Positions 5,526-58,169 of a stretch of 64,000 nt of DNA are shown here, piece by piece; positions within the stretch are counted from its first letter, which is position 1, and each line of letters opens with the position of its first letter. The stretch is from positions 55,292 through 119,291 of the forward strand of contig MFHE01000010.1 of NCBI GenBank assembly GCA_001778495.1, given 5' to 3'. The notes beneath the pieces are model-generated. The model searched no databases and was not told where the DNA came from. It saw nothing but the letters and a program-made list of their open reading frames with translations. Source of the DNA: Candidatus Giovannonibacteria bacterium RIFCSPHIGHO2_01_FULL_45_24. Its GTDB lineage: Bacteria > Patescibacteriota > Minisyncoccia > UBA11713 > 2-01-FULL-45-33. The position numbers were made by a program, and so were the translations under genes.

Positions 5526-6746
5526 ATGAAATGTCAAATCTGCGGGAATAAAAATCTGGAGTCGGTTCTGGATTTGGGGCATCAGCCGATTGTGCAGGCG
5601 TATCTTACAAAAAAGCAGCTCCACGAGCCGGAGGTGACTTATCCGCTGCATTTATGCCGCTGCGCGAAATGCGGCCTTTTGCAACTGGATTCAATAATTG
5701 CTCCGGAGCTTGTTTTCCCGAAAAACTACCCTTACCGCACCGGACTTACTAACATGCTTATCAGAAATTTCCGCGAGCTCGCTGGCTCTTTAGAAACAAA
5801 ATATAATCTTTCCAAAAATGACTTAATCATAGATATCGGTTCAAACGACGGAACGCTCCTTCAGAGTTTTAAAGAAAAGGGCATGCGCGTTTTGGGAGTT
5901 GAACCAACGGACGCCGCGAAAGCCGCGAACAAAAACGGCATTTCCACAATACAAGAATATTTCACAAAAAGCACAGCGAAGAAAATATTAAAAAAATACG
6001 GCAAGGCAAAAATCGTAACTGCAACCAACACTTTTGCGCATATCCCCAACCCAGTAGAACTTACGAAAAACATCAAAAGCGCGCTCGCGCCGGACGGAGT
6101 GTTTGTTTCCGAATCTCAATATCTCATGGACATAGTAGAAAAGTTTGAGTTTGACACAATTTACCACGAGCACCTGCGTTTTTATTCTCTCAAGCCCTTA
6201 ATCAAGCTTTTTGCCCTTGCCGGGATGAGCTTGATTGACGCGGAGCGCATATCGTCCTCTGGCGGCTCAATCAGAATTTTTGCAAAACCCGGTCGGCATA
6301 AAATGAGCGCGGGCGCAAGAAATCTCATGGCCGCTGAGGAGAGGGCGGGGCTTTACAACAAAGCAAAACTCCACAAATTTGCGCAAAAAGCAATAATCGC
6401 GAAAAATAATCTGCTGAAACTTTTGATTGAATTAAAACAAAAAGGCGCGAAAATAGCGGGGATAACAAGCTCCGCGCGCTCCAATACTCTTCTGGGCTTT
6501 ACAAAAATAGACAGCCAGATTCTTGACTACTCCGTGGAAAAAGCCGGGTCGCCGAAAATCGGGCTTTTCACCCCCGGAACGCATATCCCCGTGCTTGAGG
6601 AGGATAAATTATTCAAGGACCAGCCGGACTACGCCTTAGTGCTTTCCTGGCATATCGGAGAAGAGCTTATGAAAATACTTCGCAAAAACGGATATAAGGG
6701 CAAATTTATAATGCCGCTTCCAAAAGCAAGAATTTATGGAAAATAA
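5526..6746 (+). CDS. NDP-hexose C-methyltransferase-like SAM methyltransferase (TylCIII/NovU-type: Zn-ribbon Methyltransf_13 plus C-methyltransferase Methyltransf_14)
   Basis: N-terminal CQICGNKNLESVLDLGHQPIVQAYL...CRCAKCGLLQL double CxxC zinc ribbon, then class-I MTase IIDIGSNDGTLL...VLGVEPT and a C-terminal domain. Confidence 0.7.
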   Translation: MKCQICGNKNLESVLDLGHQPIVQAYLTKKQLHEPEVTYPLHLCRCAKCGLLQLDSIIAPELVFPKNYPYRTGLTNMLIRNFRELAGSLETKYNLSKNDLIIDIGSNDGTLLQSFKEKGMRVLGVEPTDAAKAANKNGISTIQEYFTKSTAKKILKKYGKAKIVTATNTFAHIPNPVELTKNIKSALAPDGVFVSESQYLMDIVEKFEFDTIYHEHLRFYSLKPLIKLFALAGMSLIDAERISSSGGSIRIFAKPGRHKMSAGARNLMAAEERAGLYNKAKLHKFAQKAIIAKNNLLKLLIELKQKGAKIAGITSSARSNTLLGFTKIDSQILDYSVEKAGSPKIGLFTPGTHIPVLEEDKLFKDQPDYALVLSWHIGEELMKILRKNGYKGKFIMPLPKARIYGK

Positions 6747-7827
6747 AAAAATCCCCTGGTGGCAGCCGCAGGTTGAGAAAGAAGATTATGAATTTATCAA
6801 GCGAGCGCTTGACGCCAATTTTGTAAACGAAGGCCCGCTTACGGAAGAATTTGAAAAAAAAATCGCTTATTTTGTCGGGGCAAAACATGCCGTAGCGACT
6901 ACTAGCTGCACGGCCGCGATTTTTTTGTCTTTAAAAGCCGTAGGAGTCGGGCAGGGAGATGAAGTCATCGTGCCGGACGCGACTTTTATAGCGACAGTCA
7001 ATGCAGTTGAGCTTGCAGGCGCGAAACCCGTATTAGTAGATATTGACCCTGAAACACTGGCAATAAGCGTTGAGGCAATAAAAAAAGCAATAACGCCAAA
7101 AACCAAAGCGATAATCCCGGTGCATGTCACCGGAAGAGGTGCCAATATGGAGGCGATTTTAGACATTGCCAAAAAAAATAATATTTTCGTGATAGAAGAC
7201 GCCGCCGAAGCGCTTGGCTCAAAGCACAAAGGAAAATTTCTGGGAACTTTGGGGAGTGCGGGTTGTTTTTCTTTCGCCGCGAATAAAACCCTGGCAACCG
7301 GGCAGGGCGGGATGATTGTGACCGATAGCGACGAGGTTTTTAAAAAATTGCGCCCGTTAAAAGACCATGGCAGGCCAGTCCACGGAACGGGAGGAGACGA
7401 TACGCACGATACTATCGGCTACAATTTCCGCATGACCGATTTGCAGGCCGCCGTAGGGCTTGGGCAATTCGCGCATTTAAAAGAGCGACTCCAGAGAATG
7501 AAAAAAAATTACCAGCTTTACGCCGAAAATTTAAAAGACATTAAAGAGATAAAAATTTTCCACTCCCGAAGCGAGGAGATGCCCCAATGGACGGACGTCG
7601 CAACGGACAAACGGGACGAGCTTGAAAAATATCTTCGCGGAAAAAATATTGATTGCCGAAAATACTGGCATCCTATCCACCGCCAGCTCCCCTACAAGCT
7701 CCCTGATGAAAACTTTCCGGTGAGCTCCGCGCTCCTGCCGAAATCCCTCTGGCTTCCATCCGCTTTCACGCTGACGGATGAAGATGTTTTGCGAGTTTGC
7801 GACGAGATAAAAAAGTTTTTTTGGTAA
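6736..7827 (+). CDS. DegT/DnrJ/EryC1/StrS-family PLP-dependent sugar aminotransferase
   Basis: HAVATTSCTAAIFLSLKAVGVGQGDEVIVPDATFIATVNA...IIPVH..G...FVIEDAAEALGS...GCFSF..NKTL has the PLP-lysine region of DegT-family enzymes. Confidence 0.8.
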   Translation: MENKKIPWWQPQVEKEDYEFIKRALDANFVNEGPLTEEFEKKIAYFVGAKHAVATTSCTAAIFLSLKAVGVGQGDEVIVPDATFIATVNAVELAGAKPVLVDIDPETLAISVEAIKKAITPKTKAIIPVHVTGRGANMEAILDIAKKNNIFVIEDAAEALGSKHKGKFLGTLGSAGCFSFAANKTLATGQGGMIVTDSDEVFKKLRPLKDHGRPVHGTGGDDTHDTIGYNFRMTDLQAAVGLGQFAHLKERLQRMKKNYQLYAENLKDIKEIKIFHSRSEEMPQWTDVATDKRDELEKYLRGKNIDCRKYWHPIHRQLPYKLPDENFPVSSALLPKSLWLPSAFTLTDEDVLRVCDEIKKFFW

Positions 7828-16683: not shown

Positions 16684-18436
16684 GTCGTTTGAGTCCGTCT
16701 TTAAATAAAACCGTCTCCGTCCACAGGCGCATAAGGCGCCAAGCAACCAAAAAAAGGCGCGGAAAATTTAGCGCTTCAGATTTGCCGTAAGTCCTGAAAT
16801 AATGGCTGACTCCGGCTTCGGCATAGCGGAAACCGGCGTTATGCGCTTTTTTAAGCATCTCTATAGAAAGCACGCCGGAGTTATGCGTCAGCTCCAAAGA
16901 ATCAAGGACTTTTTTCCTAAACAGCCGAAACTCGCAATCGGGATCGCTAATCGGCATCCGGAAAAACCATCTTATAAACCTTCTGTAGGCCTCGCTGATA
17001 ATAATTCTGTGCATTGGCTCCATTTGTTTTGAATGATAACCAACCACAATATCCACGTCATCATTTAAACTTTTCACCAAGGCCGGCAAATCTCCAACAT
17101 CATACTGGCCGTCGCCGTCGGTGTAAAAAATAAAATCCTTCGTCGCCGTACTAAAGGCGCTCTTGAGAGCTGCGCCGTAGCCCATTTTCTTTTCATGGAA
17201 AACCAGTTTTAATTCCGGAATGCTTTTTTGAAGTTCTAAAAGAAACTCACGACTTCCGTCAGAAGAATAATCGTCCGCGACGATAATTTCAAAATCATCA
17301 GTAAATGTCTGTGCAACCCTTCTTCCTTCCAAAATCATGGTTGAAATTGTCCCTTTCATATTAATACAGGGAAAAATCATAGATAAAGACGCAACAGACA
17401 AGCCCGCAAAAGCCCTTTTTCTGATGTCCGCGGACGAGCGTCTCATTTGCTCGCTTGTGCTTTCATATTTTCTTAAAGCGCCATTAAGCCATGCATGATT
17501 TTCTTTATACCAATCAATGGTCACCGGGATATGGCTGTCCAGCGAATGCCGCGGGCGCCATCCTAAAGCGAGCAACTTTGACGGATTAACCGCATACCTC
17601 CTGTCATTTGCCGGACGGTCTTCAACGAAAGTAATCAGATTTTCCCGCTTGTTTAAAATTTTTAATATTTTTCCGGCAATATCCATGTTTGAGCATTCTT
17701 CATCTGCGGAAACTCCGTATGTCTCCCCATAAGGGGCTTTTTCCAAAAGAGCGAGAACAGCGCGGGTGTGGTCGTCTACGTGAATCCACGACCGCACATT
17801 CAAACCGCTGCCGTGAATCGGCAAGGGCTTGTTGTCCATTGCCAGCATGGCGAAAAACGGAATTACTTTTTCCGGATGCTGCCTCGGCCCAAAATTATTG
17901 ACCGAACGCGAAATAATCACCGGCAGGCCGTAGGTCTTTTGATAAGCGCGCACCAGCATCTCTCCTGCGGCCTTGGAAGCGGCGTACGGGGAATTCGGCT
18001 TAAGCGGCGACTCTTCGGTGAACTTCTCATGCGACTTAAAATGCAAGTCGCCCCAGACCTCGTCCGTTGAGATATGAACCATTTTTTTAACGTTGGGCGA
18101 GCCCCTCAACGCCTTTAAAAGCGAGTGGACGCCGACGACGTTGGTATGCACAAAATCGTCGGCGTCGGAATGGATTGACCTGTCCACATGGCTCTCGGCA
18201 GCAAAGTTTACTACAAAGTCGGATTCCAGCATCAGCTTTTTTACGAGCTCCGTGTCGCAAATGTCCCCTTTCACAAACCGGTATCTGGACGGCGGCACGC
18301 CGCGAAGATTTTCTTCGTTCCCGACGTAAGTCAAAAGGTCAAGATTTATGACGAAACTTTCGGGGAAATTATCCAAAATATAATGGATAAAATTAGACCC
18401 CATAAACCCGCACCCTCCCGTAACAAGAAAAGTCAT
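16670..18436 (-). CDS. Fusion: dTDP-glucose 4,6-dehydratase (RmlB-like) N-terminal domain plus GT2 glycosyltransferase C-terminal domain
   Basis: MTFLVTGGCGFMGSNFIHYIL...ISTDEVWGDL...YAASKAAGEMLV is the RmlB/extended-SDR signature. The last ~250 aa are IIVADDYSSDGSREFL...FIFYTDGDGQYDVGDL (GT2). Confidence 0.75.
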   Translation of the reverse strand: MTFLVTGGCGFMGSNFIHYILDNFPESFVINLDLLTYVGNEENLRGVPPSRYRFVKGDICDTELVKKLMLESDFVVNFAAESHVDRSIHSDADDFVHTNVVGVHSLLKALRGSPNVKKMVHISTDEVWGDLHFKSHEKFTEESPLKPNSPYAASKAAGEMLVRAYQKTYGLPVIISRSVNNFGPRQHPEKVIPFFAMLAMDNKPLPIHGSGLNVRSWIHVDDHTRAVLALLEKAPYGETYGVSADEECSNMDIAGKILKILNKRENLITFVEDRPANDRRYAVNPSKLLALGWRPRHSLDSHIPVTIDWYKENHAWLNGALRKYESTSEQMRRSSADIRKRAFAGLSVASLSMIFPCINMKGTISTMILEGRRVAQTFTDDFEIIVADDYSSDGSREFLLELQKSIPELKLVFHEKKMGYGAALKSAFSTATKDFIFYTDGDGQYDVGDLPALVKSLNDDVDIVVGYHSKQMEPMHRIIISEAYRRFIRWFFRMPISDPDCEFRLFRKKVLDSLELTHNSGVLSIEMLKKAHNAGFRYAEAGVSHYFRTYGKSEALNFPRLFLVAWRLMRLWTETVLFKDGLKRHGGK

Positions 18437-47888: not shown

Positions 47889-49160
47889 CTATTTTGAAAG
47901 TCCAGCGCTGAAGAGGAAGCGGGTCAGGCGGCCGGTGCCGGTATGCGGCAAAGAGCGCAAAAAATAGCGGGAGGCGGTAATTGCTGAAAACATACTTACC
48001 AAAATTCCCAGCCCCAGAGTTAATGCGAACCCGCGCACCAAGCTTGTGCCGAAATAATAAAGAATCGCGGCGGTAATCAAACTGGAAACATTTGAGTCGC
48101 GTATGGACGTCCATGCCCGGCGGAAGCCCTCGGCCATCGCCGTATCCAGCGACCGCCCGGAACGGAGCTCCTCTTTCATGCGCTCAAATATCAAAATATT
48201 GGCGTCCACCGCCATACCCACCGACAAAATAAATCCGGCAATGCCCGCGGACGAAAGCGTCACCGGAATCAATTTAAACAAAAGCAAAGTAATCGCGCCG
48301 TAAACGCCGAGCGCCAAAACCGAGATGACGCCGGGAAGCCGGTACCATAAAATCATAAAGAGCATGACGGCGAGCGTCCCGTAAATCGCGGCGCGCAGGC
48401 TTTTTATAAGCGCGTCCTTGCCCAAAGAAGCGCCGACGCTTTCCTGCGAAAGCAAGGTGATTGGAACCGGCAGCGCTCCGGCGTTAAACCGTCTAACCAG
48501 CTGTTTCGCTTCCTCCAGAGTGAATCGCCCGGTTATCTGCGCCTGGCCGCCGCTAATGCGCTCCTGCACCACCGGCGCGCTGATTGGAGCGCCGTCCAAA
48601 AAAATAGCCACTGGGCTGCCGACATTTTTCTCGGTAATCCTTTCAAATATTTCCGCGCCCTCGTCGTTAAACTCCAAAAAAATCTGCGGCTCGCCCAAAT
48701 TTTGCTCAAAACTCAAAGAGGCGCGCTTTAAATACCTGCCGGTCAGATTCGTGGCCACGAAACCTTCCCCTTTTAATTCCCTAAATTCCAAATAGGGCGT
48801 TTCGCCAATCGCTTTTATGGCCTCTTTTATGTCAAAAACGCCCGCAAGCTCCACAATGAGCCGCCGCTCTCCTCCGACGTTTTCCGTCTGCACAACCGGT
48901 TCGGAGACGCCGAAAAGATTTACGCGCCTTTCAATAACATCCCGCACTCCGGCCATAGCCTCGCTGGCTTCGGCGGAAGAAACCAAAGATATGTCCGCGC
49001 GGTAAACCAAGTGCGCTCCGCCCTGCAAATCCAGCCCCAGCCGGAACGGCCACCGCAAAAAATCCGGCAAAAACCGTGCCTGCCTGCCGGCAGGTAGGTC
49101 GTAAAGCCCCGCCAAAACGCCGAGAAGTAAAATGATTAATGCCAAAACACGAATTTTCAT
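47889..49160 (-). CDS. secD: Protein translocase subunit SecD
   Basis: GLDLQGGAHLVY signature, periplasmic domain, six C-terminal TM helices (...LSVGMAVDANILIFERMKEE...). Confidence 0.8.
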   Translation of the reverse strand: MKIRVLALIILLLGVLAGLYDLPAGRQARFLPDFLRWPFRLGLDLQGGAHLVYRADISLVSSAEASEAMAGVRDVIERRVNLFGVSEPVVQTENVGGERRLIVELAGVFDIKEAIKAIGETPYLEFRELKGEGFVATNLTGRYLKRASLSFEQNLGEPQIFLEFNDEGAEIFERITEKNVGSPVAIFLDGAPISAPVVQERISGGQAQITGRFTLEEAKQLVRRFNAGALPVPITLLSQESVGASLGKDALIKSLRAAIYGTLAVMLFMILWYRLPGVISVLALGVYGAITLLLFKLIPVTLSSAGIAGFILSVGMAVDANILIFERMKEELRSGRSLDTAMAEGFRRAWTSIRDSNVSSLITAAILYYFGTSLVRGFALTLGLGILVSMFSAITASRYFLRSLPHTGTGRLTRFLFSAGLSK

Positions 49161-49234
49161 ATATCTTGATAATTTACAGCAAGTTTGCTAATTTGCCAAT
49201 AGAAGAAAATTTACAAAGAGAGGAGAAACAAGTA

Positions 49235-49762
49235 ATGGATATGGGTATAAAAATTTCCATAATCGTTGCGATGGCAAAAAATAGCAAGGTGATCGGGCAA
49301 TCCGGAGAAGTCCCTTGGCGTCTGTCTGCCGACCTTAAGCGCTTTAAAGAGTTGACCTTGGGGCACGCGGTGATAGTCGGGAGAAAAACACATGAATCGA
49401 TACTGAAGCGGCTTGGTAAACCCCTGCCTAACCGAAAAACCATTGTGCTGACCAGGCAACAGGGCCGGCACGCCGGCGGATGCCTAGTTGCGCATTCATG
49501 GAAAGAGGCGCTGAAGCTGGCCGAGGGCGAAGAAGAAATATTCGTCATCGGCGGAGCGGAAATATATAAGCTGGCGCTTCCCTACACCGACACTATTCAC
49601 TTAACACTGGTGCATGCCGACGTAGCCGGCGACGTTTTTTTCCAGAACTTTAACGCGCTGGAGTGGGAGTGGACCGACTACGAACCGCGGCCAAAAAACG
49701 AAAAGAACGAATACAATTTCACTTGGTGGCGTCTCAAAAGAAAATATAGGAAAGGAGAATAA
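49235..49762 (+). CDS. folA: Dihydrofolate reductase
   Basis: ISIIVAMAKNSKVIGQSGEVPWRLSADLKRFKELTLGHAVIVGRKTHESI is the classic DHFR N-terminus. AGGAGA Shine-Dalgarno 8 nt upstream of the ATG at 49235. The track ORF starts at 49139, but the internal Met with an RBS is preferred. Confidence 0.8.
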   Translation: MDMGIKISIIVAMAKNSKVIGQSGEVPWRLSADLKRFKELTLGHAVIVGRKTHESILKRLGKPLPNRKTIVLTRQQGRHAGGCLVAHSWKEALKLAEGEEEIFVIGGAEIYKLALPYTDTIHLTLVHADVAGDVFFQNFNALEWEWTDYEPRPKNEKNEYNFTWWRLKRKYRKGE

Positions 49763-49764
49763 AG

Positions 49765-50364
49765 ATGCGCAAGATTAAGAAACCTAACTTCCAGAACAAT
49801 TCCTTGTCAGACCTGGTTCTCACCCTTCAGAAAAAGGTCGTTCGCGATTACCGAACCCTCACAAAAATCGTGGACGGGCTCCGCGCGGCCGGCTATAAAA
49901 TAGTGCTCACGATCGGTTCCTGGGATATGCTCCATATCGGGCATGTCCGCTATCTCATCGCCGGAAAAAATAGAGGAAATATCCTGGTGGTGGGGACCGA
50001 CAGCGACCGCATAGTTAAAAAAACCAAGGGCGCGCACCGCCCCATCATTCCTGAAGAGGAACGGATGGAAATGTTGAGTTATCAGCTCCCCGTTGACTTT
50101 GTAACGCTGCTTGATGACATGGATGAGCAAGGGAGATGGAAATGCGACCTTTTGAAGTGCATCCGGCCAGATGTGTTCATAGCGGTTAAGGGAAACAGCT
50201 ATTCAGCGAAGCAGAAGCGGGAGATAAAGAAATACTGCCGCAAGCTGATAGTGCTCCCGAGGCAAGCGGAAAACACCTCCAGCACTACCATCATCCAAAA
50301 CGCTTTTAAAAAAAATCTCTCCGGCTTGATGGAAATTTTAGACACGAGAGGGGGCAAGCCATGA
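49765..50364 (+). CDS. Cytidylyltransferase-like nucleotidyltransferase (TagD/RfaE-domain-II-like HxGH fold)
   Basis: KIVLTIGSWDMLHIGHVRYL...ILVVGTDSD matches G.FD..H.GH....vgv.sD. Confidence 0.55.
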   Translation: MRKIKKPNFQNNSLSDLVLTLQKKVVRDYRTLTKIVDGLRAAGYKIVLTIGSWDMLHIGHVRYLIAGKNRGNILVVGTDSDRIVKKTKGAHRPIIPEEERMEMLSYQLPVDFVTLLDDMDEQGRWKCDLLKCIRPDVFIAVKGNSYSAKQKREIKKYCRKLIVLPRQAENTSSTTIIQNAFKKNLSGLMEILDTRGGKP

Positions 50365-51173
50365 AAACCCTCCTTGTGCTTTACATTCCGGTCATCCACC
50401 AGGGCTATATCAAGCTCTTTGAGAAATACTCCAGACAAGTTGACGGGCTCATGGTTCTTGGAGAAACCCTGGTAGAAGAATGTAAATTTCTGGAACGGGA
50501 AATCCGCGCACTTGACCCTTTGACGATGAGGAGAATCATCGCGAGCATGGGGTTTTTTAAAAAAGTGGAAATTCTGGAGGATTACGCGGTAAAACTGCTG
50601 GAAGGCTCCGAAGTCATCACAAGCAGGGAATGCATCACCAGGCGCTTCGCCGAAAAATACCTGACCGCAAGCCGAGTTCGCTATGATTCCTCATTCCTGC
50701 GCTGGGATGAAAGCCACATTGTCTCTCGAACAGACATAAAATACGACAGAAAGTCCGCGGATCCTTTTGACCGAGAGATTGTGCGCCAAGCGACAGAGGA
50801 AGGCGAGAAAAGCCCGGATTGGTGGCGCCAAGTGGGAGCAGTGGCAGTAAAAAATGGGGTGGTGATTGGAAAAGCCCATAACAAAGACCCTATAAGCGAA
50901 TACAGACCTTATGCTTTCGGAAACATAAGGGACTTCGTTGAAGCCGGCCAGCATAGCGAAATCACTCCGACAATCCACGCGGAACAAGTTTTGGCGGCGA
51001 AGGGCGGAATAAAAGAAGCTGATATTTACGTGTCTGTGTTCCCGTGCATCACCTGTTCCGGCATACTTGCCGAAGCCGGCATCAAACGATGCTTCTTCGC
51101 CTCCGGAAACGCCTATCTGGATGTTGAGAACATCCTTAAAGCCAGAGGCATTGAACTGATTTTTGTGAAATAA
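50361..51173 (+). CDS. dCMP/cytidine deaminase-family zinc enzyme with an ~130-aa N-terminal extension of unknown function
   Basis: C-terminal VGAVAVKNGVVIGKAHN...HAEQVLAAKGG...FPCITCSGILAEAGIK has the H-A-E / P-C-x-x-C zinc motifs. 4-nt ATGA overlap with the upstream gene. Confidence 0.6.
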   Translation: MKTLLVLYIPVIHQGYIKLFEKYSRQVDGLMVLGETLVEECKFLEREIRALDPLTMRRIIASMGFFKKVEILEDYAVKLLEGSEVITSRECITRRFAEKYLTASRVRYDSSFLRWDESHIVSRTDIKYDRKSADPFDREIVRQATEEGEKSPDWWRQVGAVAVKNGVVIGKAHNKDPISEYRPYAFGNIRDFVEAGQHSEITPTIHAEQVLAAKGGIKEADIYVSVFPCITCSGILAEAGIKRCFFASGNAYLDVENILKARGIELIFVK

Positions 51174-51220
51174 AAAAAGCCCGGCCAGCTGCAGCGCAGC
51201 CGCCGGGTCGTTTTATTTTT
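51172..51220. terminator. Bidirectional rho-independent terminator between convergent genes
   Basis: AAAAAAA-GCCCGGC-cagcugcagcgcagc-GCCGGGU-cgUUUUAUUUUU. Confidence 0.5.
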
Positions 51221-51223
51221 GCT

Positions 51224-51661
51224 TCAACCAATCGGGAAATTCACCACAAGCGCCTTGCCTCTTCTACCCAATTTAGGAACTATAAGATGAAAGTGGAGAT
51301 GGCGTACAGTCGCCCCCGTGTGAGCCGTGTCCCCGAAGCGCAGACTTAGCGCGCCGCCAGCTATGCCAAATCTCTTAATGGCCCAACGGAGGAGGAAAAG
51401 TATGTCGTGAAAATCCACGGCCGTTAATCTCTGCACCTTATCCGTGTGCTTTCCTCCAATAATGAGAAAGTGGAATTTGGCATTTTTATAAGGCCAGGCT
51501 GCTTCCGTGATTAACCATCTGCCGTAACGCCGCAGAAGCGGCTTTCTGTGCCACCTAAAATTCTTCGGGCAAAATGGGCATTTGCCTCCGGCAGCAATTT
51601 CTTTAAGGACGGCGCGGTAGTCCTCACTTCTGGCGTTTTTCGGGTCAACAACATCTCCCAT
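51224..51661 (-). CDS. HIT-family nucleotide hydrolase/transferase
   Basis: GATVRHLHFHLIVP is a histidine-triad HxHxHxx motif. N-terminal CPFCP. Confidence 0.6.
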   Translation of the reverse strand: MGDVVDPKNARSEDYRAVLKEIAAGGKCPFCPKNFRWHRKPLLRRYGRWLITEAAWPYKNAKFHFLIIGGKHTDKVQRLTAVDFHDILFLLRWAIKRFGIAGGALSLRFGDTAHTGATVRHLHFHLIVPKLGRRGKALVVNFPIG

Positions 51662-51701
51662 TAATGCATTTTATCACATCGATTGCCATCTTACATATGA
51701 A

Positions 51702-52535
51702 TCACACCCCCACTGGAATCCCTTTGATGGGCGGGTGCGGGTCATAGCCATCCAGCGTGAAATCCTCAAACCTAAATGAAAACAGATCCTTTGTTTCCTG
51801 GTTCAACTTTACCCGCGGAAGCGGCCGGGGATCACGCGAGAACTGAAGTTTGGCAAACTCAACCTGGTCAAAGTAAATATGGACGTCGGAGAGATGATGC
51901 ACAAACTCTATCGGCTTCAAACCCACGACCTGCGCTACCATCCGAAGCAAAAGCGCGTACTCGGCAATGTTAAAAGGTACGCCAACGAGAAGATCGGCGC
52001 TCCGTTGCCAGAGATTCAGGTAAAGCCCGCCCTCCGCCACGGTAAATTTGAATATCACATGGCATGGAGCAATAAACACTTTATCAATATCTTCTGGGTT
52101 CCAGGCCGTGACCGTCATGCGCTTTGAATCCGGAAAATTTGTGATCTCGTGGAGTACATTACTGATTTGGTCAATCTCGCCGCCATCCCGCGTTCTCCAA
52201 TGACGCCATTGAGGCCCATAAATCGGGCCGAGTTTCCTCGGCCCAAGACCATAACGAGCGCATATCTCCGGAGCTGCCCAAGAATCCCAAAGGTGAACCC
52301 CGTTTTTATGCAGCTCGGAGACGTCATCAGAGCCAGACAAAAACCATAAAAGTTCGTGTACCATCGCTTTCCAAGAACCCTTCAAGCTTCTTGTGGTAAT
52401 AAGCGGAAAACCATCCTCCATCCGAAAACGCATCTCATACCCCGGGTATACGATAGTGCCTGGCCCTTGGACGCTCGACATTCTTTTCTTCCCTTTGGTC
52501 AGAACCGTGTCAATCAAATTCAGAAACTGCTCCAT
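51702..52535 (-). CDS. thyA: Thymidylate synthase (ThyA-type)
   Basis: LGPIYGPQWRHWR, FIAPCHVIFKF (catalytic Cys) and SADLLVGVPFNIAEYALL are canonical ThyA motifs. Confidence 0.85.
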   Translation of the reverse strand: MEQFLNLIDTVLTKGKKRMSSVQGPGTIVYPGYEMRFRMEDGFPLITTRSLKGSWKAMVHELLWFLSGSDDVSELHKNGVHLWDSWAAPEICARYGLGPRKLGPIYGPQWRHWRTRDGGEIDQISNVLHEITNFPDSKRMTVTAWNPEDIDKVFIAPCHVIFKFTVAEGGLYLNLWQRSADLLVGVPFNIAEYALLLRMVAQVVGLKPIEFVHHLSDVHIYFDQVEFAKLQFSRDPRPLPRVKLNQETKDLFSFRFEDFTLDGYDPHPPIKGIPVGV

Positions 52536-52578
52536 GATTTATTCCTCCTATATTTCAGCAGCGTTGGCATTCGGTTAG

Positions 52579-52609
52579 AAATCTAAAAATCTTTTCAAAT
52601 CCTAGCAAA
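52579..52609 (-). promoter_or_regulatory. Conserved upstream motif (minus strand TTTGCTAGGATTTGAAAAGATTTTTAGATTT) 5' of thyA; copy 1 of 4
   Basis: Similar blocks recur 5' of the Nudix-like gene, the Tmk-like gene and gyrB. Confidence 0.3.
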
Positions 52610-52613
52610 TTTT

Positions 52614-52652
52614 AAATAAAAAAACAAGCCCCGCTACAACAGCACGGGCTTG
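52614..52652 (-). terminator. Rho-independent terminator whose stem includes the last codons (IKPVLL*) of the Nudix-like gene
   Basis: Minus strand: CAAGCCC-gugcuguuguagcg-GGGCUUG followed by UUUUUUUAUUUAA. Confidence 0.5.
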
Positions 52653-53266
52653 ATGGATTGGAGATGCAGAAGTAAAATCTGCGACCAAGATTCAAGAGAT
52701 TTTTTCTTTTTCAAAACCTCCGGAAGCGCAACGAACCGCCCGCCCCTCTCGGCCAACTCTTCGCCGACTCCCTCAAACCCATCGATCTCTATTTTATAAA
52801 CCAACCCAAGATGCACCCTGTCCACCGGCGGGTCGCTGCTGCAGATGAATCCTGCGAAGCTTCGGGAAATCAGATTTTGGAAGTGAAGCTCCTCGCAAAG
52901 TTCCCGATCTGCGCCGGCGACAAGCCCCTCGTATGAAGGATCGCCGTTGTTGAATTCAAAAAAATCTTTTCGCTCAATATGTCCGCCGACTCCTACGGAA
53001 AAAAGCCCTGAAAGCCGCTTCTCTCCAATATTTTCTCCGCGCTGATAGATGAAAATCCTTCCCCGCTGGTCAAATACGAGCTGGTAAGAGATAAAATGCC
53101 TCCAGCTTTCGTCTGCCTCAAGCGCGTCGTTGCGCACGCGGAAGCTGGCTACTTTCAAAAGTTTCTTCAGCGTCGCTTCAGTTCCTTCAGAGAATGGGCT
53201 GGAAATCAAATACGCTTTTAGTATTTGAACATCAACTCCAATAATAGGTTGCCCTTTGCTAGACAT
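52634..53266 (-). CDS. NUDIX-like hydrolase with an atypical Nudix box
   Basis: GDPSYEGLVAGADRELCEELHF reads G-x4-E-x7-RE-L-x-EE-L-H-F, one residue short in the first spacer and with H for the conserved G. AAAGGAG RBS. Confidence 0.4.
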   Translation of the reverse strand: MSSKGQPIIGVDVQILKAYLISSPFSEGTEATLKKLLKVASFRVRNDALEADESWRHFISYQLVFDQRGRIFIYQRGENIGEKRLSGLFSVGVGGHIERKDFFEFNNGDPSYEGLVAGADRELCEELHFQNLISRSFAGFICSSDPPVDRVHLGLVYKIEIDGFEGVGEELAERGGRFVALPEVLKKKKSLESWSQILLLHLQSIKPVLL

Positions 53267-53294
53267 AATTTGCTCCTTTCACTCAAAATAACGC

Positions 53295-53319
53295 AAATCT
53301 TATTCAAACTTAGCAAACC
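53295..53319 (-). promoter_or_regulatory. Conserved upstream motif (TTTGCTAAGTTTGAATAAGATTT) 5' of the Nudix-like gene; copy 2
   Basis: See 52579..52609. Confidence 0.3.
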
Positions 53320-53369
53320 TATTCCGCAATATCAATGCCCATTGAGCAGGCTGTGCCTTCGATAATTTT
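53319..53369 (-). pseudogene. Duplicated, degenerate 3'-end fragment of rplK (last ~16 codons)
   Basis: Minus frame KIIEGTACSMGIDIAE* versus the true rplK end [16 protein letters not shown]. About 73% nt identity over 51 nt, followed by the same downstream motif. Confidence 0.4.
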
Positions 53370-53370
53370 T

Positions 53371-53407
53371 TAAATAAAAAAACAAGCCCTGTTAGAGCAA
53401 GGGCTTG
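53371..53407 (-). terminator. Rho-independent terminator whose stem includes the last codons (IKPLL*) of the Tmk-like gene
   Basis: CAAGCCC-uugcucuaaca-GGGCUUG followed by UUUUUUUAUUUAA. Confidence 0.5.
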
Positions 53408-53943
53408 ATGGCGGCGATGGCCGAGGAAAGCACTTCTTCCCAGGACACACCATCGAAGTTGATCACATGAATATTGCCAAAACATTTTGCCTCGGCAAGC
53501 CGGATATAATTAGAATCCTCCGGCGCGTCTAAAATTATAGAAAGATGCGGGAAAATCATTTCTTCGCCGATAATCTCCCGATGCAATTGCAGGCATTGTT
53601 CCAAAGAGCCGTCCAACATCCCGTGAGCGAGCGTGGAAAGCCAATATCCGACAGAGAGCACGCAGTTCCCCAGCAGAATATGGGGCCGGATGCAGGTTTT
53701 GATGTGTTCAAGCCGGTCTTCAACGCACAGCCGCCGAAACTCATAATTTGTCTTGGGCGCGGGCAGTTTTCCGTCAATAATTTTCCGAATACGATGTCCA
53801 ATAATCCCGTCGCTCGGCTCTTTTACCGCCACGGCGGCCAAACCCAGCTCAACGGCAAAGTAAACCTCCAGCTCATCTGAAAGTGCTTTTTGGGCAACGT
53901 TACTAACTCCTTCAATAGCGACAAACAGCGGAGTTTTTTTCAT
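53392..53943 (-). CDS. Thymidylate kinase (Tmk) homolog with degenerate P-loop and DRY motifs
   Basis: FVAIEGVSNVAQKA, where Tmk has IEGxDGxGKST. EFRRLCVEDRLEHIKTCIRPHILLGNCVLSVGYWLSTLAHG aligns with the Tmk LMFAADR..H....I.PAL..G..VI.DRH..ST.AYQ block, but DR(H/Y) is replaced by GYW. The start is moved to the ATG at 53941-53943, preceded by GGAGGA (the track uses an upstream TTG). Confidence 0.55.
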   Translation of the reverse strand: MKKTPLFVAIEGVSNVAQKALSDELEVYFAVELGLAAVAVKEPSDGIIGHRIRKIIDGKLPAPKTNYEFRRLCVEDRLEHIKTCIRPHILLGNCVLSVGYWLSTLAHGMLDGSLEQCLQLHREIIGEEMIFPHLSIILDAPEDSNYIRLAEAKCFGNIHVINFDGVSWEEVLSSAIAAIKPLL

Positions 53944-53958
53944 ATATCCTCCGATTAG

Positions 53959-53983
53959 GAATCTCTGAATAAATTCTAGCAAA
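53959..53983 (-). promoter_or_regulatory. Conserved upstream motif (TTTGCTAGAATTTATTCAGAGATTC) 5' of the Tmk-like gene; copy 3
   Basis: See 52579..52609. Confidence 0.3.
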
Positions 53984-53984
53984 T

Positions 53985-54410
53985 CTACTCCGTAACCTCA
54001 ATCCCCATGTTGCGGGCGGTGCCTTCTATGATTTTCATGGCCGCCTCAACGTCATTGGCGTTTAGGTCTTCCATTTTCCGTTCCGCAATCTCGCGGATTT
54101 TAGCGCGCGAAACTTTGCCGACTTTGCCCGCAAGAGAATTTGCCGCGCCTTTTTCAACCCCTGCGGCTTTGCGCAAAAGGTCGGAGGCCGGCGGCGTCTT
54201 TAATTTAAAATCAAAAGTCCGGTCTTGGTAGATTGTAATTTCCGCGGGGATGATGTCACCTCCCATTTGGGCGGTGGCTGCGTTGAATTTGCTGACGAAC
54301 TCTCCAATGTTCACTCCGTGCTGGCCCAGCGCCGGGCCCAAAGGAGGAGCAGGGGTGGCTTTGCCCGCCGGCAGCTGAATTTTTATTATTGTTTTTATTG
54401 CTTTTGCCAT
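53985..54410 (-). CDS. rplK: 50S ribosomal protein L11
   Basis: [43 protein letters not shown]... is unmistakable L11. Confidence 0.9.
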
Positions 54411-54465
54411 AATATAATACTAATCTACAAATTTATGCGAATGATACAAATATTAAGAATAAAAA

Positions 54466-54918
54466 TCAAGCTTCCAAAAATGGGTCTTCCTGCGTCAGCG
54501 CGCTATTTATGTTTTTCCAAAAAACACTTTGTAATCTTTTAGGAAAAACTTTAATGCCCCGAATTTCTTCTTTATCAAACCAGCGCACATCTCCTACTCG
54601 GCCGTCATCGTTGTCTTGGGCACCAACCCCATTGAAATTGGCGTTGGCTTGAGGCCACCCTAACCAAAATATCTCAAATGAGATAGAATCTGGCTTGTCA
54701 TGAAATTCCTGAACATAAAGCAACCGCCCAATGTTAACATTTAAACTGGTTTCCTCTTTAACCTCTCGCTTTGCGCCTTGAATAATACGTTCTGTCTCAT
54801 ATTCCCATCCTCCGCCTGGCGGATACCAAAAATTTTGACCCCTATTGCGTACGAGTAAAACTTTATTACTATTGTTGTCATAAACCACAACACGATTTGC
54901 TATCCTCAATTTTTTCAT
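54466..54918 (-). CDS. NUDIX hydrolase
   Basis: GGGWEYETERIIQGAKREVKEETSL is a canonical Nudix box. Confidence 0.75.
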   Translation of the reverse strand: MKKLRIANRVVVYDNNSNKVLLVRNRGQNFWYPPGGGWEYETERIIQGAKREVKEETSLNVNIGRLLYVQEFHDKPDSISFEIFWLGWPQANANFNGVGAQDNDDGRVGDVRWFDKEEIRGIKVFPKRLQSVFWKNINSALTQEDPFLEA

Positions 54919-54925
54919 AAATTTC

Positions 54926-55312
54926 TTAATTCAGAATCCGCTTTGGGCTTAAGTATTTTTGCCTAAAATTAACTATAAGTCCTAGTTTCTTTCCGCTAGC
55001 TGTTAAATATCTTTTCATTTGAAAATAATCTTCTTTTGAAACTATTCTTTTGGCTTTTAAATCAACTACAACCCTGTCTTCTATCATAAAATCTGGAATA
55101 TTTCTTCTCTCATTTTCTCCCTCAAACGATGCGCCTAACGATTTCTCTCGCTGATAAGACATTCCGGCTGTTTTTAACGCCTCTTCCAAAGCATCCGTAT
55201 ATGATTTCTCACTTCTAAATTGGCCTAAATCGTTATGTATTTTAAAGCACAAACCGCAAATTTTGTACGATAGTTCCGGATATATTACTTTATCCATTCG
55301 TTGCATTCGCAT
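54926..55312 (-). CDS. GxxExxY-family protein (PD-(D/E)xK-like fold)
   Basis: About 125 aa. Pattern ...DFMIEDRVVVDLKAKRIVSKEDYFQMKRYLTASGKKLGLIVNF typical of the GxxExxY family. Confidence 0.45.
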   Translation of the reverse strand: MRMQRMDKVIYPELSYKICGLCFKIHNDLGQFRSEKSYTDALEEALKTAGMSYQREKSLGASFEGENERRNIPDFMIEDRVVVDLKAKRIVSKEDYFQMKRYLTASGKKLGLIVNFRQKYLSPKRILN

Positions 55313-55353
55313 ATTTGCAGCATTCGAATATTATTCGCAGATTTGTATTATAT

Positions 55354-55899
55354 TTATAACTTCTTCACTTGCAGGAAATCCAGCTCCACGGGGGTCTCGC
55401 GCCCGAAAACGGAAACGAACACCTTGACTTTGCCGCGCGCCTCGTCAATCTCCCCGACTTTGCCCTCAAAATCCTTGAACGGCCCGTCTATGATTCTAAC
55501 CGGCTCGCCCACGCCGACGTCAATTTTATGCGTCGGCTCTTCTTTGCCCATTCTAGCGAAAAGCGAATCAATTTCCTCTTTCTCCAGAGGCACCGGGGTC
55601 GTTCCCGAGCCCACAAAACCGGTGACCCGCGGCGTGTTGCGGACAATATACCACGAAGCGTCGGTTACAATCATCTCAACCAGAACATATCCCGGATAGA
55701 TTTCCTCTTCAACCACCCGGCGCTTGCCGCTTTTGATTTTTATCTTTTTTTCTTTGGGCACCACAACCTGAAAAATCTGGTCCTCCATCCCCAAAGATTC
55801 AATGCGCTGGCGCAAATTGCGGGCGACCGCGTCTTCGTAGCCGGAGTAGGTGTGCACCGCATACCAATTTTTTCCGAATTCGGATGTTTGCTTCGGCAT
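55354..55899 (-). CDS. nusG: Transcription termination/antitermination factor NusG
   Basis: WYAVHTYSGYE...NGN and KOW domains (GEPVRIIDGPFKDFEGKVGEID). Confidence 0.9.
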   Translation of the reverse strand: MPKQTSEFGKNWYAVHTYSGYEDAVARNLRQRIESLGMEDQIFQVVVPKEKKIKIKSGKRRVVEEEIYPGYVLVEMIVTDASWYIVRNTPRVTGFVGSGTTPVPLEKEEIDSLFARMGKEEPTHKIDVGVGEPVRIIDGPFKDFEGKVGEIDEARGKVKVFVSVFGRETPVELDFLQVKKL

Positions 55900-55911
55900 A
55901 AATTTAAAAAA

Positions 55912-56094
55912 TTAAATAAATATCCTGATTACGCGCGAAAATATAAAATCAAACGCGCCCAAAACCGCGGCCACGGCCAAAGAAACCGCGATTACAGTAA
56001 TGGTATATCGCAATGTTTCCTGCCTCGTCGGCCAGTTCACCTTTTTCATCTCCAGCCGGGTTTCTTTAAAATAATTTGTTAACTTCGTAAACAT
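55912..56094 (-). CDS. secE: Preprotein translocase subunit SecE
   Basis: 60 aa. ...ETRLEMKKVNWPTRQETLRYTITVIAVSLAVAAVLGAFDFIF single TM. Immediately upstream of nusG. Confidence 0.75.
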   Translation of the reverse strand: MFTKLTNYFKETRLEMKKVNWPTRQETLRYTITVIAVSLAVAAVLGAFDFIFSRVIRIFI

Positions 56095-56131
56095 AATACT
56101 AATTTACAAACGTGAATTTGTGTTATTTACC

Positions 56132-56156
56132 ATTTTTAAAAGCCCCGCGGGGCTCT
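56132..56156 (-). terminator. Rho-independent terminator downstream of gyrB
   Basis: Minus strand: AGCCCCG-CGGGGCU palindrome followed by UUUAAAAAUGG. Confidence 0.45.
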
Positions 56157-56189
56157 TACATTTCAATAATACTCCGCGCGCGAAATATG

Positions 56190-58169
56190 TCAAATGTCCA
56201 GATTCTTCACCGCTTTGGCGTGGGTTTGAATAAAAAGTTTCCTCGGCTCCACTTCATCACCCATCAAAACGTCAAAAATATGGTCGGCCGCTTTGGCGTC
56301 TTCAATAGTCACCTGCTTAAGCACCCTTCGCGCCGGGTCCATGGTCGTCTCCCAAAGCTGCTCGGCGTTCATCTCGCCCAAACCCTTGTAGCGCTGGATG
56401 TTTTGCCCGTCAACTCCTTTCGTCATTTTGTTTTTTTCTTCTTCGGCGTAAGCGTATTTTACATCCTTGCCTTTTTGGATTTTATAAAGCGGCGGCTGGG
56501 CAATATAAACATATCCTTGCTGAACCAGCGGCAGGTAGTATCTGTAAAAAAGCGTTAAAAGTAGCGTCCGTATGTGCGCGCCGTCCACGTCCGCGTCCGT
56601 CATAATCACAACGCGGTGGTAGCGGAGCTTGGATATGTCAAAGCTCTCCGCGATTGCCGCGCCCAAGGCAATCACCAGCGCTTTGATCTCCTGCGAGGTC
56701 AGCATCTTGTCCAGACGCGCTTTCTCAACGTTTAAGATTTTGCCACGCAGAGGCAAAATCGCCTGGAATCTTCTGTCTCTGGCCTGCTTGGCCGTGCCCC
56801 CGGCGGAATCTCCCTCAACTATGAAAATTTCCGACTCGGCGGCGTTCTTGGACTGGCAATCCGCCAGTTTTCCGGGGAGCGCCAGGCCCTCCAAAGCGCC
56901 TTTCCGCAAAATAGTGTCTTTGGCCGCCTTGGCCGCCTTGCGCGCCTTGAGAGCCAAGATGACTTTTTCCAAAATCGCCCGCGCGTCCTGCGGCTGCTCT
57001 TCCAAAAACGCGTCAAATGCTTTCCCGAATACGTCTTCCACCGCCGTGCGCGCCTCGGGGTTGCCGAGTTTCGCTTTAGTTTGCCCTTCAAACTGCGGAT
57101 TTTTAAGTTTTACGGAAATTACGGAAGTCAGCCCCTCGCGGACGTCCTCCCCAGTCAGATTTTCTTCGGATTCCTTAAGATACCCGTTTTTGCGGGCGTA
57201 TGAATTCAAAGAGCGCGTCAGCGCCGTCCGAAAACCGGTTGCGTGCTGGCCGCCTTCCTGGTTTAAAATATTATTTGCGAAAGCGAGCTCCCTCGTTTGA
57301 AGGTCGTCAACATACTGCAAAGCAATTTCAACCATAATTCCTTCGGATTCTTTTTGGGTATAAAAAATTGTGTCGTGCTTGGGCTGGAAATCCTCGTTAA
57401 GGTACGTCACGTAAGAAGCCACGCCGCCTTCAAAGTAAAAGGCATAGGATTTATGCTCCGTTTTGTCTTTGGCGCGCTCGTCATGCACGGAAATTTTTAT
57501 GCCCTTGGTAAGATAGGCCTGCTGGCGCATGCGCTCCAAAATCCTTTTCCAGTCAAATTCCGGAATCTTGCCTCCGCCGGCTGGCGGATTTACCGGCATA
57601 AAAATTTCCGTGTCCGGCTCAAAAGTAACGGCTGTGCCGATACGCGAGCATCTGCCTACTTTCTGAACTTTGGTTTTTGGTTTGCCTCTTTGGTATTCCT
57701 GCGCCCACTGCTCGCCCTCGCGGCAAACCTCCACGCGCATCCAGGAAGACAAAGCGTTGACCACGGAAACTCCGACTCCGTGTAGCCCCCCTGAAACTTT
57801 ATACCCCGCTCCGCCGAATTTTCCTCCGGCGTGGAGCATCGTCATTACGGTTTCCAGCGCAGATTTTTTGGTATGCTTATGGATTTCAATGGGTATTCCC
57901 CGGCCGTCGTCAATAACGCGGACGTGGTGAGCCGGCAGCAAAGTTACGGCGATATTTTTGGCGTACCCGGCCATCGCCTCGTCAATGGAGTTGTCCACCA
58001 CCTCCCAAATCAAGTGATGAAGCCCGTCCGGGCCGGTTGAGCCGATATACATCCCCGGGCGCTTCCTGACGGGCTCCAAACCCTCCAATACAAAAATGTC
58101 TTTGGCGGTATAACTCCCTCCCTTTCCCTCCGTATTTTGGGGCTTTGTTTTTGGCACTTTTTTAGGCAT
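56190..58169 (-). CDS. gyrB: DNA gyrase subunit B
   Basis: GHKL ATPase ...LHGVGVSVVNALS..., Toprim ...IVEGDSAGG..., C-terminal ...GLGEMN... Confidence 0.9.
   Translation of the reverse strand: MPKKVPKTKPQNTEGKGGSYTAKDIFVLEGLEPVRKRPGMYIGSTGPDGLHHLIWEVVDNSIDEAMAGYAKNIAVTLLPAHHVRVIDDGRGIPIEIHKHTKKSALETVMTMLHAGGKFGGAGYKVSGGLHGVGVSVVNALSSWMRVEVCREGEQWAQEYQRGKPKTKVQKVGRCSRIGTAVTFEPDTEIFMPVNPPAGGGKIPEFDWKRILERMRQQAYLTKGIKISVHDERAKDKTEHKSYAFYFEGGVASYVTYLNEDFQPKHDTIFYTQKESEGIMVEIALQYVDDLQTRELAFANNILNQEGGQHATGFRTALTRSLNSYARKNGYLKESEENLTGEDVREGLTSVISVKLKNPQFEGQTKAKLGNPEARTAVEDVFGKAFDAFLEEQPQDARAILEKVILALKARKAAKAAKDTILRKGALEGLALPGKLADCQSKNAAESEIFIVEGDSAGGTAKQARDRRFQAILPLRGKILNVEKARLDKMLTSQEIKALVIALGAAIAESFDISKLRYHRVVIMTDADVDGAHIRTLLLTLFYRYYLPLVQQGYVYIAQPPLYKIQKGKDVKYAYAEEEKNKMTKGVDGQNIQRYKGLGEMNAEQLWETTMDPARRVLKQVTIEDAKAADHIFDVLMGDEVEPRKLFIQTHAKAVKNLDI

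Follow-up and report, generated by a model that had tools for sequence, protein, structure and literature searches.

Why should the end of a ribosomal protein gene occur a second time among genes of nucleotide metabolism? The question is raised by a stretch of 64,000 nucleotides of Candidatus Giovannonibacteria bacterium RIFCSPHIGHO2_01_FULL_45_24 (contig MFHE01000010.1), here called the window, to whose positions all unqualified coordinates refer. In the window rplK, encoding ribosomal protein L11, is followed by a Tmk-like gene (K), a Nudix-like gene (N) and thyA, all on the minus strand, which is the coding strand for the genes of the locus. A degenerate copy of the rplK 3' end lies between K and N. 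A first-pass annotation made from the sequence had read this arrangement as the conserved secE-nusG-rplK-rplA order broken by an insertion of nucleotide-metabolism genes, built up by repeated duplication of a cassette consisting of rplK tail, promoter-like motif, gene and terminator. We find a single small insertion with N as its only gene, and judge it on balance probable that the orphan rplK end was left behind when one recombination event brought together two alternative forms of the slot that follows rplK.

The duplicated tail is real. In a repeat search, the top direct repeat of the region paired 53298-53369 with 53964-54035, two segments of 72 nt that are 74% identical, align without gaps and are spaced 666 nt apart. 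The upstream member of the pair combines the last 16 rplK codons and the stop codon (T1, 53985-54035, minus strand), the source type of the duplicated tail, with a motif copy located between rplK and K (M1, 53961-53983, minus). Its counterpart combines an orphan, non-coding relic of 16 codons plus stop (T2, 53319-53369, minus) with a motif copy ahead of N that was identified by pattern match and runs on into N's own leader (M2, 53295-53317, minus). Relic and adjacent motif match the rplK end at 53 of 72 positions, and the runner-up in the real window reaches 36 of 72. Best matches in 100 Markov-1 random 64-kb windows averaged 36.1 (standard deviation 1.1) with a maximum of 39, which rules out chance similarity and bears out the rplK-tail duplication described at first pass. 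Taken alone, the relic is identical to the resident rplK tail at 39 of 51 nt, the 12 differences including no indel. Its translation reads KIIEGTACSMGIDIAE*, the stop codon being in register with that of the 16-residue rplK counterpart.

Eighteen independent contigs carry this rplK and seven of them (L001-L007, from ENA and JGI samples) span the region. Because these seven show 100% identity with the window along 3.8 kb, misassembly, named in the first-pass annotation as one way in which its reading could fail, is ruled out. Among approximately 98 rplK loci the relic occurs in the window species only (39/51 matches versus 32 or fewer elsewhere), and within that single species its sequence is invariant. 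A genome-wide repeat or miniature mobile element is also ruled out, as neither tail nor terminator recurs elsewhere in the window or in some 900 kb of related loci. So is a small open reading frame or read-through product: a TAA just upstream closes the frame, a start codon is absent, and K is read in a different frame. RNA folding of the relic is no better than that of shuffled sequence (z = -0.37), and no Rfam family matched positions 51000-56500 at E values up to 1. The relic has no coding role.

Sequence at the end of K is likewise present twice. S1 (53368-53411, minus) consists of the last K codons (…IKPLL*), an intrinsic terminator and TTTATTTAAAA, and forms the left copy of a flanking repeat. 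The right copy, S2 (52610-52656, minus), repeats K tail, terminator and TTTATTTAAAA and is joined to N in frame. The 22-mer at the terminator end, GGGCTTGTTTTTTTATTTAAAA, is present exactly twice in the window, at 52610 and 53368. Both hairpins (-11.9 kcal/mol for S1 and -16.1 kcal/mol for S2) are followed by U7; their loops differ in length, and they enclose the stop codons of K and N, respectively. S2 belongs to repeat family D4. Near-identical terminators that encode the final residues of their genes had thus been recognized correctly, and the overall observation, comprising relic, three motif copies and a duplicated terminator with last codons, is confirmed.

Relatives revealed how far the insertion reaches. 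Closest among complete genomes is CP066687.1 (locus L093), a 651-kb contig that is apparently a whole Giovannonibacteria genome and of which 12 kb were read. Its gene order is that of the window from a prenyltransferase gene to secD, with amino acid identities of 99% for nusG, 96% for rplK, 95% for gyrB and 92% for secD. CP066687.1 and a further relative, L096, have rplK, K and thyA in order with the same flanking genes, and both are without a block of about 758 bp that the window carries; a HIT gene then follows in each. In a third relative, L097, rplK is followed by K. No rplK-tail relic was found in any of the three. In CP066687.1, whose counterpart element is nearly identical to S1, the K terminator adjoins the thyA promoter with nothing between them. 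Blastn aligned the window from rplK through S with positions 5534-6585 of that locus, and from S2 through thyA with positions 6542-7000. The two segments overlap by 44 nt on CP066687.1, corresponding to the K tail and terminator that are doubled in the window, and this overlap is the signature of a flanking duplication. The direct repeat flanking the insertion, S1 and S2, measures 44-47 nt.

The inserted block therefore comprises T2, M2, N and S2 (52610-53367, minus; alternative phasing 52657-53411). In CP066687.1 the terminator …TTTATTTAAAA is followed at once by TTGCTAGG…, which is the promoter motif of thyA. In the window S1 …TTTATTTAAAA runs into AATTATCGAAGG…, the start of the relic, and S2 runs into TTTGCTAGG…. 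One joint is thus homologous, a 44-47-nt terminator copy leading into the thyA promoter. The other, TTTATTTAAAA/AATTATCGAAGG, falls in an A-run common to both partners; read as TTTATTTAAAA/AATTATCG, it lies in an A-run shared with rplK …ATGAAAATCATAG. Relative to CP066687.1 there is one insertion of about 758 bp at this site with N as its only gene, and the earlier proposal that the relic marks an insertion was right to that extent. Direct observations are the relic, the doubling of the terminator, how far the insertion extends and that relatives lack it. Thymidylate synthase, by contrast with N, lies outside the insertion and is a native neighbor, and K is native in the clade at its position. 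For K and thyA, then, relatives show the same gene order with no trace of duplicated rplK sequence, which is what the first-pass annotation had named as evidence against itself, and its repeated cassette duplication gives way to a single inserted block with N. Gene calls of the surrounding 20 kb or so listed no recombinase-like Pfam family, and scanning ten neighboring genes with Pfam likewise revealed none. Nor does the block resemble an integron or integrase-mobilized unit with att or attC sites, as it holds N alone and its hairpins are plain terminators with a U-run.

The missing rplA proved to be a separate matter. No homologues of rplA, rplJ or rplL (ribosomal proteins L1, L10 and L7/L12) are detectable within the 64-kb window. 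Eighty loci were retrieved via rplK for gene-order comparison. Loci from outside the candidate phyla radiation (CPR) nearly all read rplK-rplA, usually followed by rplJ and rplL where the contig reaches that far. Among the CPR loci retrieved, rplA is missing after rplK in many (L011, L012, L017, L018, L020, L021, L025, L026, L029, L031, L038, L073, L074, L078, L082 and L087, and also L091, L093 and L096) and present in others such as L013, L015, L016, L019 and L022. Three of the latter, L016, L019 and L022, are the CPR loci in which rplA is retained and thyA is seen as well, in the order rplK-rplA-thyA-folA; all are Moraniibacteriota-type by rplK order and two are titled Moraniibacteriota. The earlier premise that rplA directly follows rplK consequently holds for L1-bearing relatives and fails in many CPR loci. 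A subgroup of Parcubacteria, OD1-L1, is without ribosomal protein L1 altogether (PMC5220378; bioRxiv 10.1101/2022.01.07.475337), a description that both sources trace to Brown et al. 2015. The window and many CPR loci show the same trait, with no difference: rplK is not followed by rplA. The missing rplA is an already-known lineage trait; the window covers the locus, and genome-wide absence rests on the literature. Since L1-bearing relatives already have rplK-rplA-thyA-folA, the best explanation for finding rplK next to nucleotide genes is that rplA was lost beside pre-existing neighbors, and the notion that a nucleotide-metabolism insertion broke the order is not supported.

The single gene of the inserted block, N (53266-52634, minus; 210 amino acids), has no match in Pfam, NUDIX included, or in NCBIfam. 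Its family profile matched PDB entry 3E57 (TM1382) with an E value of 2.4e-50, and it contains a Nudix-box-like GGHI…RELxEE in which G94, G95, H96, R121, E122, E125 and E126 are invariant, features that identify N as a predicted Nudix-family phosphoesterase of the TM1382 family. Only two homologues are close (81% and 74% identity). All others, at 38% or less, are scattered over other CPR bacteria, Thermotogota and Planctomycetota and are named 'predicted NUDIX family phosphoesterase'. Public databases hold three lineages with close N homologues. Both close homologues reside in other contexts, rplK-X126-N-tmk-thyX in L091 and dcd-N-HD in L092, and share with the window a conserved N leader from TGCTAAG to ATG. 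At the C-terminus the window protein departs from both after HLQ, reading …HLQSIKPVLL* inside a K-type terminator; the homologues end …HLEEIYKLEQGGE and …YIQNSRKEEPVW… (EIYKLEQGGE and NSRKEEPVW…). Moreover, the sequence running from the end of N into thyA can be aligned, in L011 and L093, with that running from the end of K into the following gene. The last seven or so codons of N (SIKPVLL*) thus derive from a K-gene tail. As N ends in a K tail and the sequence from there to thyA aligns with a K-tail region, N now sits where a K body once was, directly 3' of an rplK 3' end.

Such an arrangement, rplK directly followed by N, was not found in the 80 genome loci, among N homologues or in a metagenome scan with N. 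The k-mer GCGGAATAGGTTTGCTAAGTTTGAATAAG, if preceded by a full rplK, would mark contigs with an rplK-N junction. The metagenome scan returned only L099 (Ga0209343_10032756), a chimeric contig of the same species in which, from about position 520, the first 151 N codons (100% identical) are joined to unrelated DNA of high G+C content, an evident assembly chimera. L091 prompted consideration of a tandem duplication with reciprocal loss that would have turned an N-K order into K-N. This was dropped, as the L091 tmk is canonical, has GKS, is about 21% identical to K and is not its orthologue. Upstream of N, L091 shares the 17-mer TTTTTATTTAAAAAATT with the window junction, and the same string precedes the L091 ribonucleotide reductase gene. 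A decayed relic 5' of N in L091 is therefore an ambiguous reading; a decayed terminator-promoter module fits at least equally well. At both sites of L091 (2560-2602 and 7170-7225), TTTTTATTTAAAAAATT followed by TGCTAG(A/G) precedes the gene, ribonucleotide reductase or N, and this string may be a common promoter module of nucleotide-metabolism genes. The TGCTAGAAT box of the L091 ribonucleotide reductase gene lies only 9 nt before the ATG, suggestive of a leaderless transcript.

K (53943-53392, minus; 183 amino acids) weakly matches Pfam Thymidylate_kin (E value 1.3e-6) and has an orthologue directly after rplK in L093 (6001-6561), L097 (746-1303), L096 and L011. It scores 44.9 bits against TIGR00041, for which the cutoff is 83.25, and lacks the P-loop GxxGxGK, reading EGVSNVAQKAL with Gly-Lys lost. 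A segment deleted in K of the clade formed by the window, L093 and L097 is, by our own alignment, what we take to be the dTMP-kinase LID region. K therefore lacks three features expected of a dTMP kinase (P-loop, LID region and above-cutoff score), and more distant homologues retain both GxGK and the LID-aligned segment. With dN/dS of 0.19-0.35, K looks like a maintained protein, one that is probably not a kinase. Homology of K and N, which divergence after duplication would need, is ruled out, K being Tmk-like and N belonging to the TM1382 Nudix family.

The motif accompanying these genes offers a possible reason why an rplK tail should be involved. The upstream pattern occurs 3 times in 64 kb versus 0.01 expected, a figure to be read with the derivation of the pattern from those same 3 copies in mind. 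Its core, TGCTAnnnT, resembles an extended -10 box, and promoter function is predicted from this consensus match. A scan upstream of K gave TTGAGG-17-TAGAAT with a TG extension, a match to the consensus. The predicted K promoter (53973-54001, minus) has its -35 box TTGAGG at 54001-53996, a 17-nt spacer and the extended -10 box TGcTAGAAT at 53981-53973, so that the -35 box sits within the rplK codons I-E-V and the extended -10 box begins just past the stop codon. The same predicted layout is found in L093, L096 and L097. The relic retains TTGATA-17-TGcTAAGTT, with a -35-like box at 53335-53330 and an extended -10-like box at 53315-53307. Because the slot promoter would necessarily span some 30 nt of rplK, its position may explain both why the tail traveled with N and why it stayed ahead of it, and the relic may owe its persistence partly to this TTGATA box at the correct 17-nt spacing for an N promoter.

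The third motif copy, M3 (52587-52609, minus), lies ahead of thyA and includes the extended -10-like box TGcTAGGAT. The S-M3 arrangement directly after the K terminator recurs in L093, L096 and L011, M3 being the native junction of K terminator and thyA, and the motif is present at the corresponding junctions of relatives without the insertion. Thus, the three motif copies reported at first pass, one for each supposedly inserted gene, are genuine, but they do not look like marks of a cassette: TGCTAnnnT also lies 34 nt 5' of gyrB, 5' of folA (TTGATA-17-TAATTT) and 18 nt 5' of a gene starting at 18436. Given its presence ahead of these other genes, the motif is probably the organism's ordinary promoter type.

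From these elements a history of the locus can be proposed. Its starting point is the locus as it normally stands in this Giovannonibacteria clade, with no rplA, with rplK, K, terminator and thyA in succession, and with the predicted promoter of the slot straddling the rplK end. We infer that in some lineage N with its leader then replaced the K body, leaving the last seven or so K codons and the terminator on N. The K version and this N version of the locus would later have been joined in one chromosome. On the homologous side, the crossover would have fallen in the terminator/thyA side or in rplK. On the illegitimate side, joining would have occurred at an AAAA(A)T microhomology between the post-terminator A-run and the AAAAT that opens the last 16 codons of rplK. 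The outcome would be the order now seen: rplK, K, terminator, old rplK tail, N promoter, N, second terminator copy and thyA. As for the direction of transfer, the newcomer could be either block, the one with K or the one with N. From gyrB through K, synonymous divergence (dS) relative to L093 is flat, at 0.37-0.43, and hence does not decide which of the two arrived.

Over its 51 nt, the relic looks somewhat more like the product of another rplK allele than like a duplicate of the resident tail. It has TCA (Ser), as in L011 rplK, where the window and L093 rplK share AAC (Asn); three adjacent changes would be needed to convert AAC into TCA, which speaks for another allele. It also has GCG (Ala), as in L096 and L097, at a codon that is ACG or ACT in the window and L093. 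In total, at 6 of the 12 positions where relic and resident tail differ, the relic has a state known from another lineage. Overall distance is uniform: over only 51 nt, the relic matches five of the six rplK tails compared at 37-39 positions and that of L091 at 34. The alternative supposes that a 666-bp unit of rplK tail, promoter, K and terminator was duplicated in tandem in place via the AAAA microhomology and that N with its leader then replaced the second K body, the rplK tail and the K tail with terminator being the relics left over. It needs two events, as does the merger of two versions. Several features fit it. The two tail copies start exactly one unit (666 nt) apart, the A-run in which the junction falls is typical of microhomology-mediated duplication, and both S copies share the TTTATTTAAAA tail, seen otherwise only in the window and L093 lineages. 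Set against these are the TCA and GCG codons of the relic, the ending of S2 in TAG with CGGGG as in L011 where S1 and L093 end in TAA, and the fact that an intermediate with two K copies was not seen in any relative. We consider duplication in place a serious but unlikely account.

Several points nevertheless weigh against a merger of two versions. The rplK-then-N arrangement that it presupposes was absent from the genome scan with rplK as well as from the metagenome scan with N. Divergence of the relic at 12 of 51 positions is also compatible with neutral decay of an in-place copy made soon after the split from L093 (dS about 0.4, some 10 changes), which counts in favor of tandem duplication. 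The affinity of S2 to the L011-type K tail involves very few bases, and the promoter invoked is a consensus match. A strongly divergent tract that could seem to date the event starts inside thyA, not at the relic, and so does not date it. Finally, L093 could have lost the block secondarily through recombination between terminator copies, so that absence there is no proof of recent insertion. Two more accounts fare much worse. One holds that selection keeps the relic for a function of its own, be it as regulatory RNA, as a site bound by protein or as a small open reading frame, and that it is no passive scar. This account could draw on the length of the relic, kept over 51 nt without indels, and on its correctly spaced -35-like box; the absent start codon, the upstream TAA, the unremarkable folding, the lack of an Rfam match and its restriction to one species make this very improbable. 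Equally hard to sustain is a mobile or repeatedly duplicating cassette that assembled the whole nucleotide array and separated rplK from rplA. Within 1.4 kb the motif is indeed present three times and the terminator twice, and a similar module, TTTTTATTTAAAAAATT…TGCTAGAAT, occurs 5' of the ribonucleotide reductase gene in L091. Yet K and thyA hold the same positions in L093 and L096 without a relic, thyA carries no rplK tail, the motif also precedes unrelated genes such as gyrB and folA, and the block is N alone in surroundings whose gene calls list no recombinase-like family. With rplA missing after rplK in many CPR loci and thyA and folA already following rplA in L1-bearing relatives, this cassette model is largely refuted.

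The genes around the scar show that the insertion took place in a changeable neighborhood. Upstream on the minus strand lie gyrB (58169-56190), secE (56094-55912), nusG (55899-55354), a PD-(D/E)XK 'GxxExxY' gene (55312-54926), a NUDIX gene of 150 amino acids (54918-54466) and rplK itself (54410-53985; 141 amino acids; Pfam Ribosomal_L11_N and Ribosomal_L11, E values of about 1e-27). Beyond the block follow thyA (52535-51702; 277 amino acids; Pfam Thymidylat_synt, E value 5e-93), the HIT gene (51661-51224), folA with a cytidylyltransferase and a dCMP deaminase gene (opposite strand), all within 49139-51173, and secD (49160-47889, minus). Comparison of window positions 49139-52535 with L093 6651-10009 revealed a jump in divergence: dS from L093 reaches 1.66 for thyA and 1.16 for dCMP deaminase and is saturated for HIT, with flanking genes (gyrB through K, and secD) near 0.4. 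The window HIT is 87% identical to that of L096 and 60% identical to that of L093, and thyA of L093 encodes 312 amino acids versus 277 in the window. The divergent tract probably reflects an allelic replacement in the L093 lineage with its boundary inside thyA. Use of the jump at thyA and HIT as a date or limit of the insertion was rejected, as it begins inside thyA and seems to stem from that replacement. In L011 (2831-4234) and L091 (8683-10386), a long ThyX-type (Thy1) thymidylate synthase gene replaces the thyA-folA set. With ThyX in some Giovannonibacteria relatives and thyA-folA in the window, the island would alternate between two thymidylate synthase systems. The rplK-secD island is mosaic, and its divergence pattern shows frequent recombination.

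A second insertion relative to CP066687.1 lies between nusG and rplK (54411-55353, minus), where the gap in L093 is 7 nt. It measures 942 bp, carries the PD-(D/E)XK and 150-amino acid NUDIX genes, and is bounded by inverted repeats of about 22 nt (54411-54432 and 55333-55354) that are 86% complementary. In L097 the PD-(D/E)XK gene is directly 5' of rplK, with an identical 40-nt sequence ahead of the rplK start codon. The 21 nt 5' of the rplK start (TTTGTAGATTAGTATTATATT, 54411-54431) are 90% identical to TTTGTAAATTAGTATTATGTT (56090-56110), which ends at and overlaps the secE start codon, and this likeness may represent a second duplicated start or promoter region tied to an insertion.

The value of these results is mainly corrective: the apparent break in secE-nusG-rplK-rplA resolves into a known trait of L1-less Parcubacteria plus one small scar. 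They alter the understanding of no known system. They do provide a base-resolved case of single-gene gain in a very small CPR genome with both junctions preserved, and they outline, between rplK and secD, a mosaic, fast-changing nucleotide-metabolism island set between highly conserved anchor genes. A promoter seemingly built into the last codons of rplK would explain how the tail came to travel with a downstream gene. A bolder extension, which we rate as quite improbable, is that the intergenic modules (terminator hairpin, T-rich then A-rich tract and TGCTAnnnT, the first promoter lying in the rplK end) act as shared homology 'sockets' through which single nucleotide-metabolism genes are swapped among streamlined CPR genomes without a dedicated recombinase. 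If true, the relic would be the first visible trace of a hotspot, anchored at a gene for a ribosomal protein, where cassettes are exchanged with no integrase involved.

How does the scar compare with known systems? Integrase-mediated islands duplicate the 3' end of their target gene, with attL and attR at the 3' ends of tRNA, tmRNA or protein genes. As in such islands, the inserted DNA in the window is delimited on its far side by a partial copy of a conserved gene's 3' end; the differences are that gene calls over about 20 kb include no recombinase-like Pfam family, that the unit is about 0.7 kb and that the flanking repeat is a terminator and not the rplK tail. Closer is homology-facilitated illegitimate recombination of naturally transformable bacteria (de Vries & Wackernagel 2002, Prudhomme et al. 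2002 and Meier & Wackernagel 2003, all cited by PMC5361080; see also PMC3240628). Shared features are homology on one side, a short microhomology at the other joint and a gain of a few hundred foreign bases. The window case differs in being read from sequence alone and in having an A-run as its joint. The microhomologies reported for experimental systems are G+C-rich.

C-terminal displacement, which leaves 'orphaned 3' ends' at rhs, contact-dependent inhibition (CDI) and type VI secretion effector loci, has itself been ascribed to recombination of this homology-facilitated illegitimate kind (Kirchberger et al. 2017, PMC5361080, which cites Jackson et al. 2009). In both settings the conserved 5' part of a gene would serve as the recombination anchor while a new 3' end and downstream gene are installed, and the old 3' end with its downstream gene is shifted downstream and kept as a relic. 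In the window, however, the anchor is a ribosomal protein gene and not a polymorphic toxin, and one displaced tail is present in place of an array. The relic tail encodes nearly the same protein as the resident one, so there is neither diversification of the anchor nor a toxin-immunity logic, and either block may be the newcomer. Judged by these analogies, the rplK scar would be the product of a known kind of recombination.

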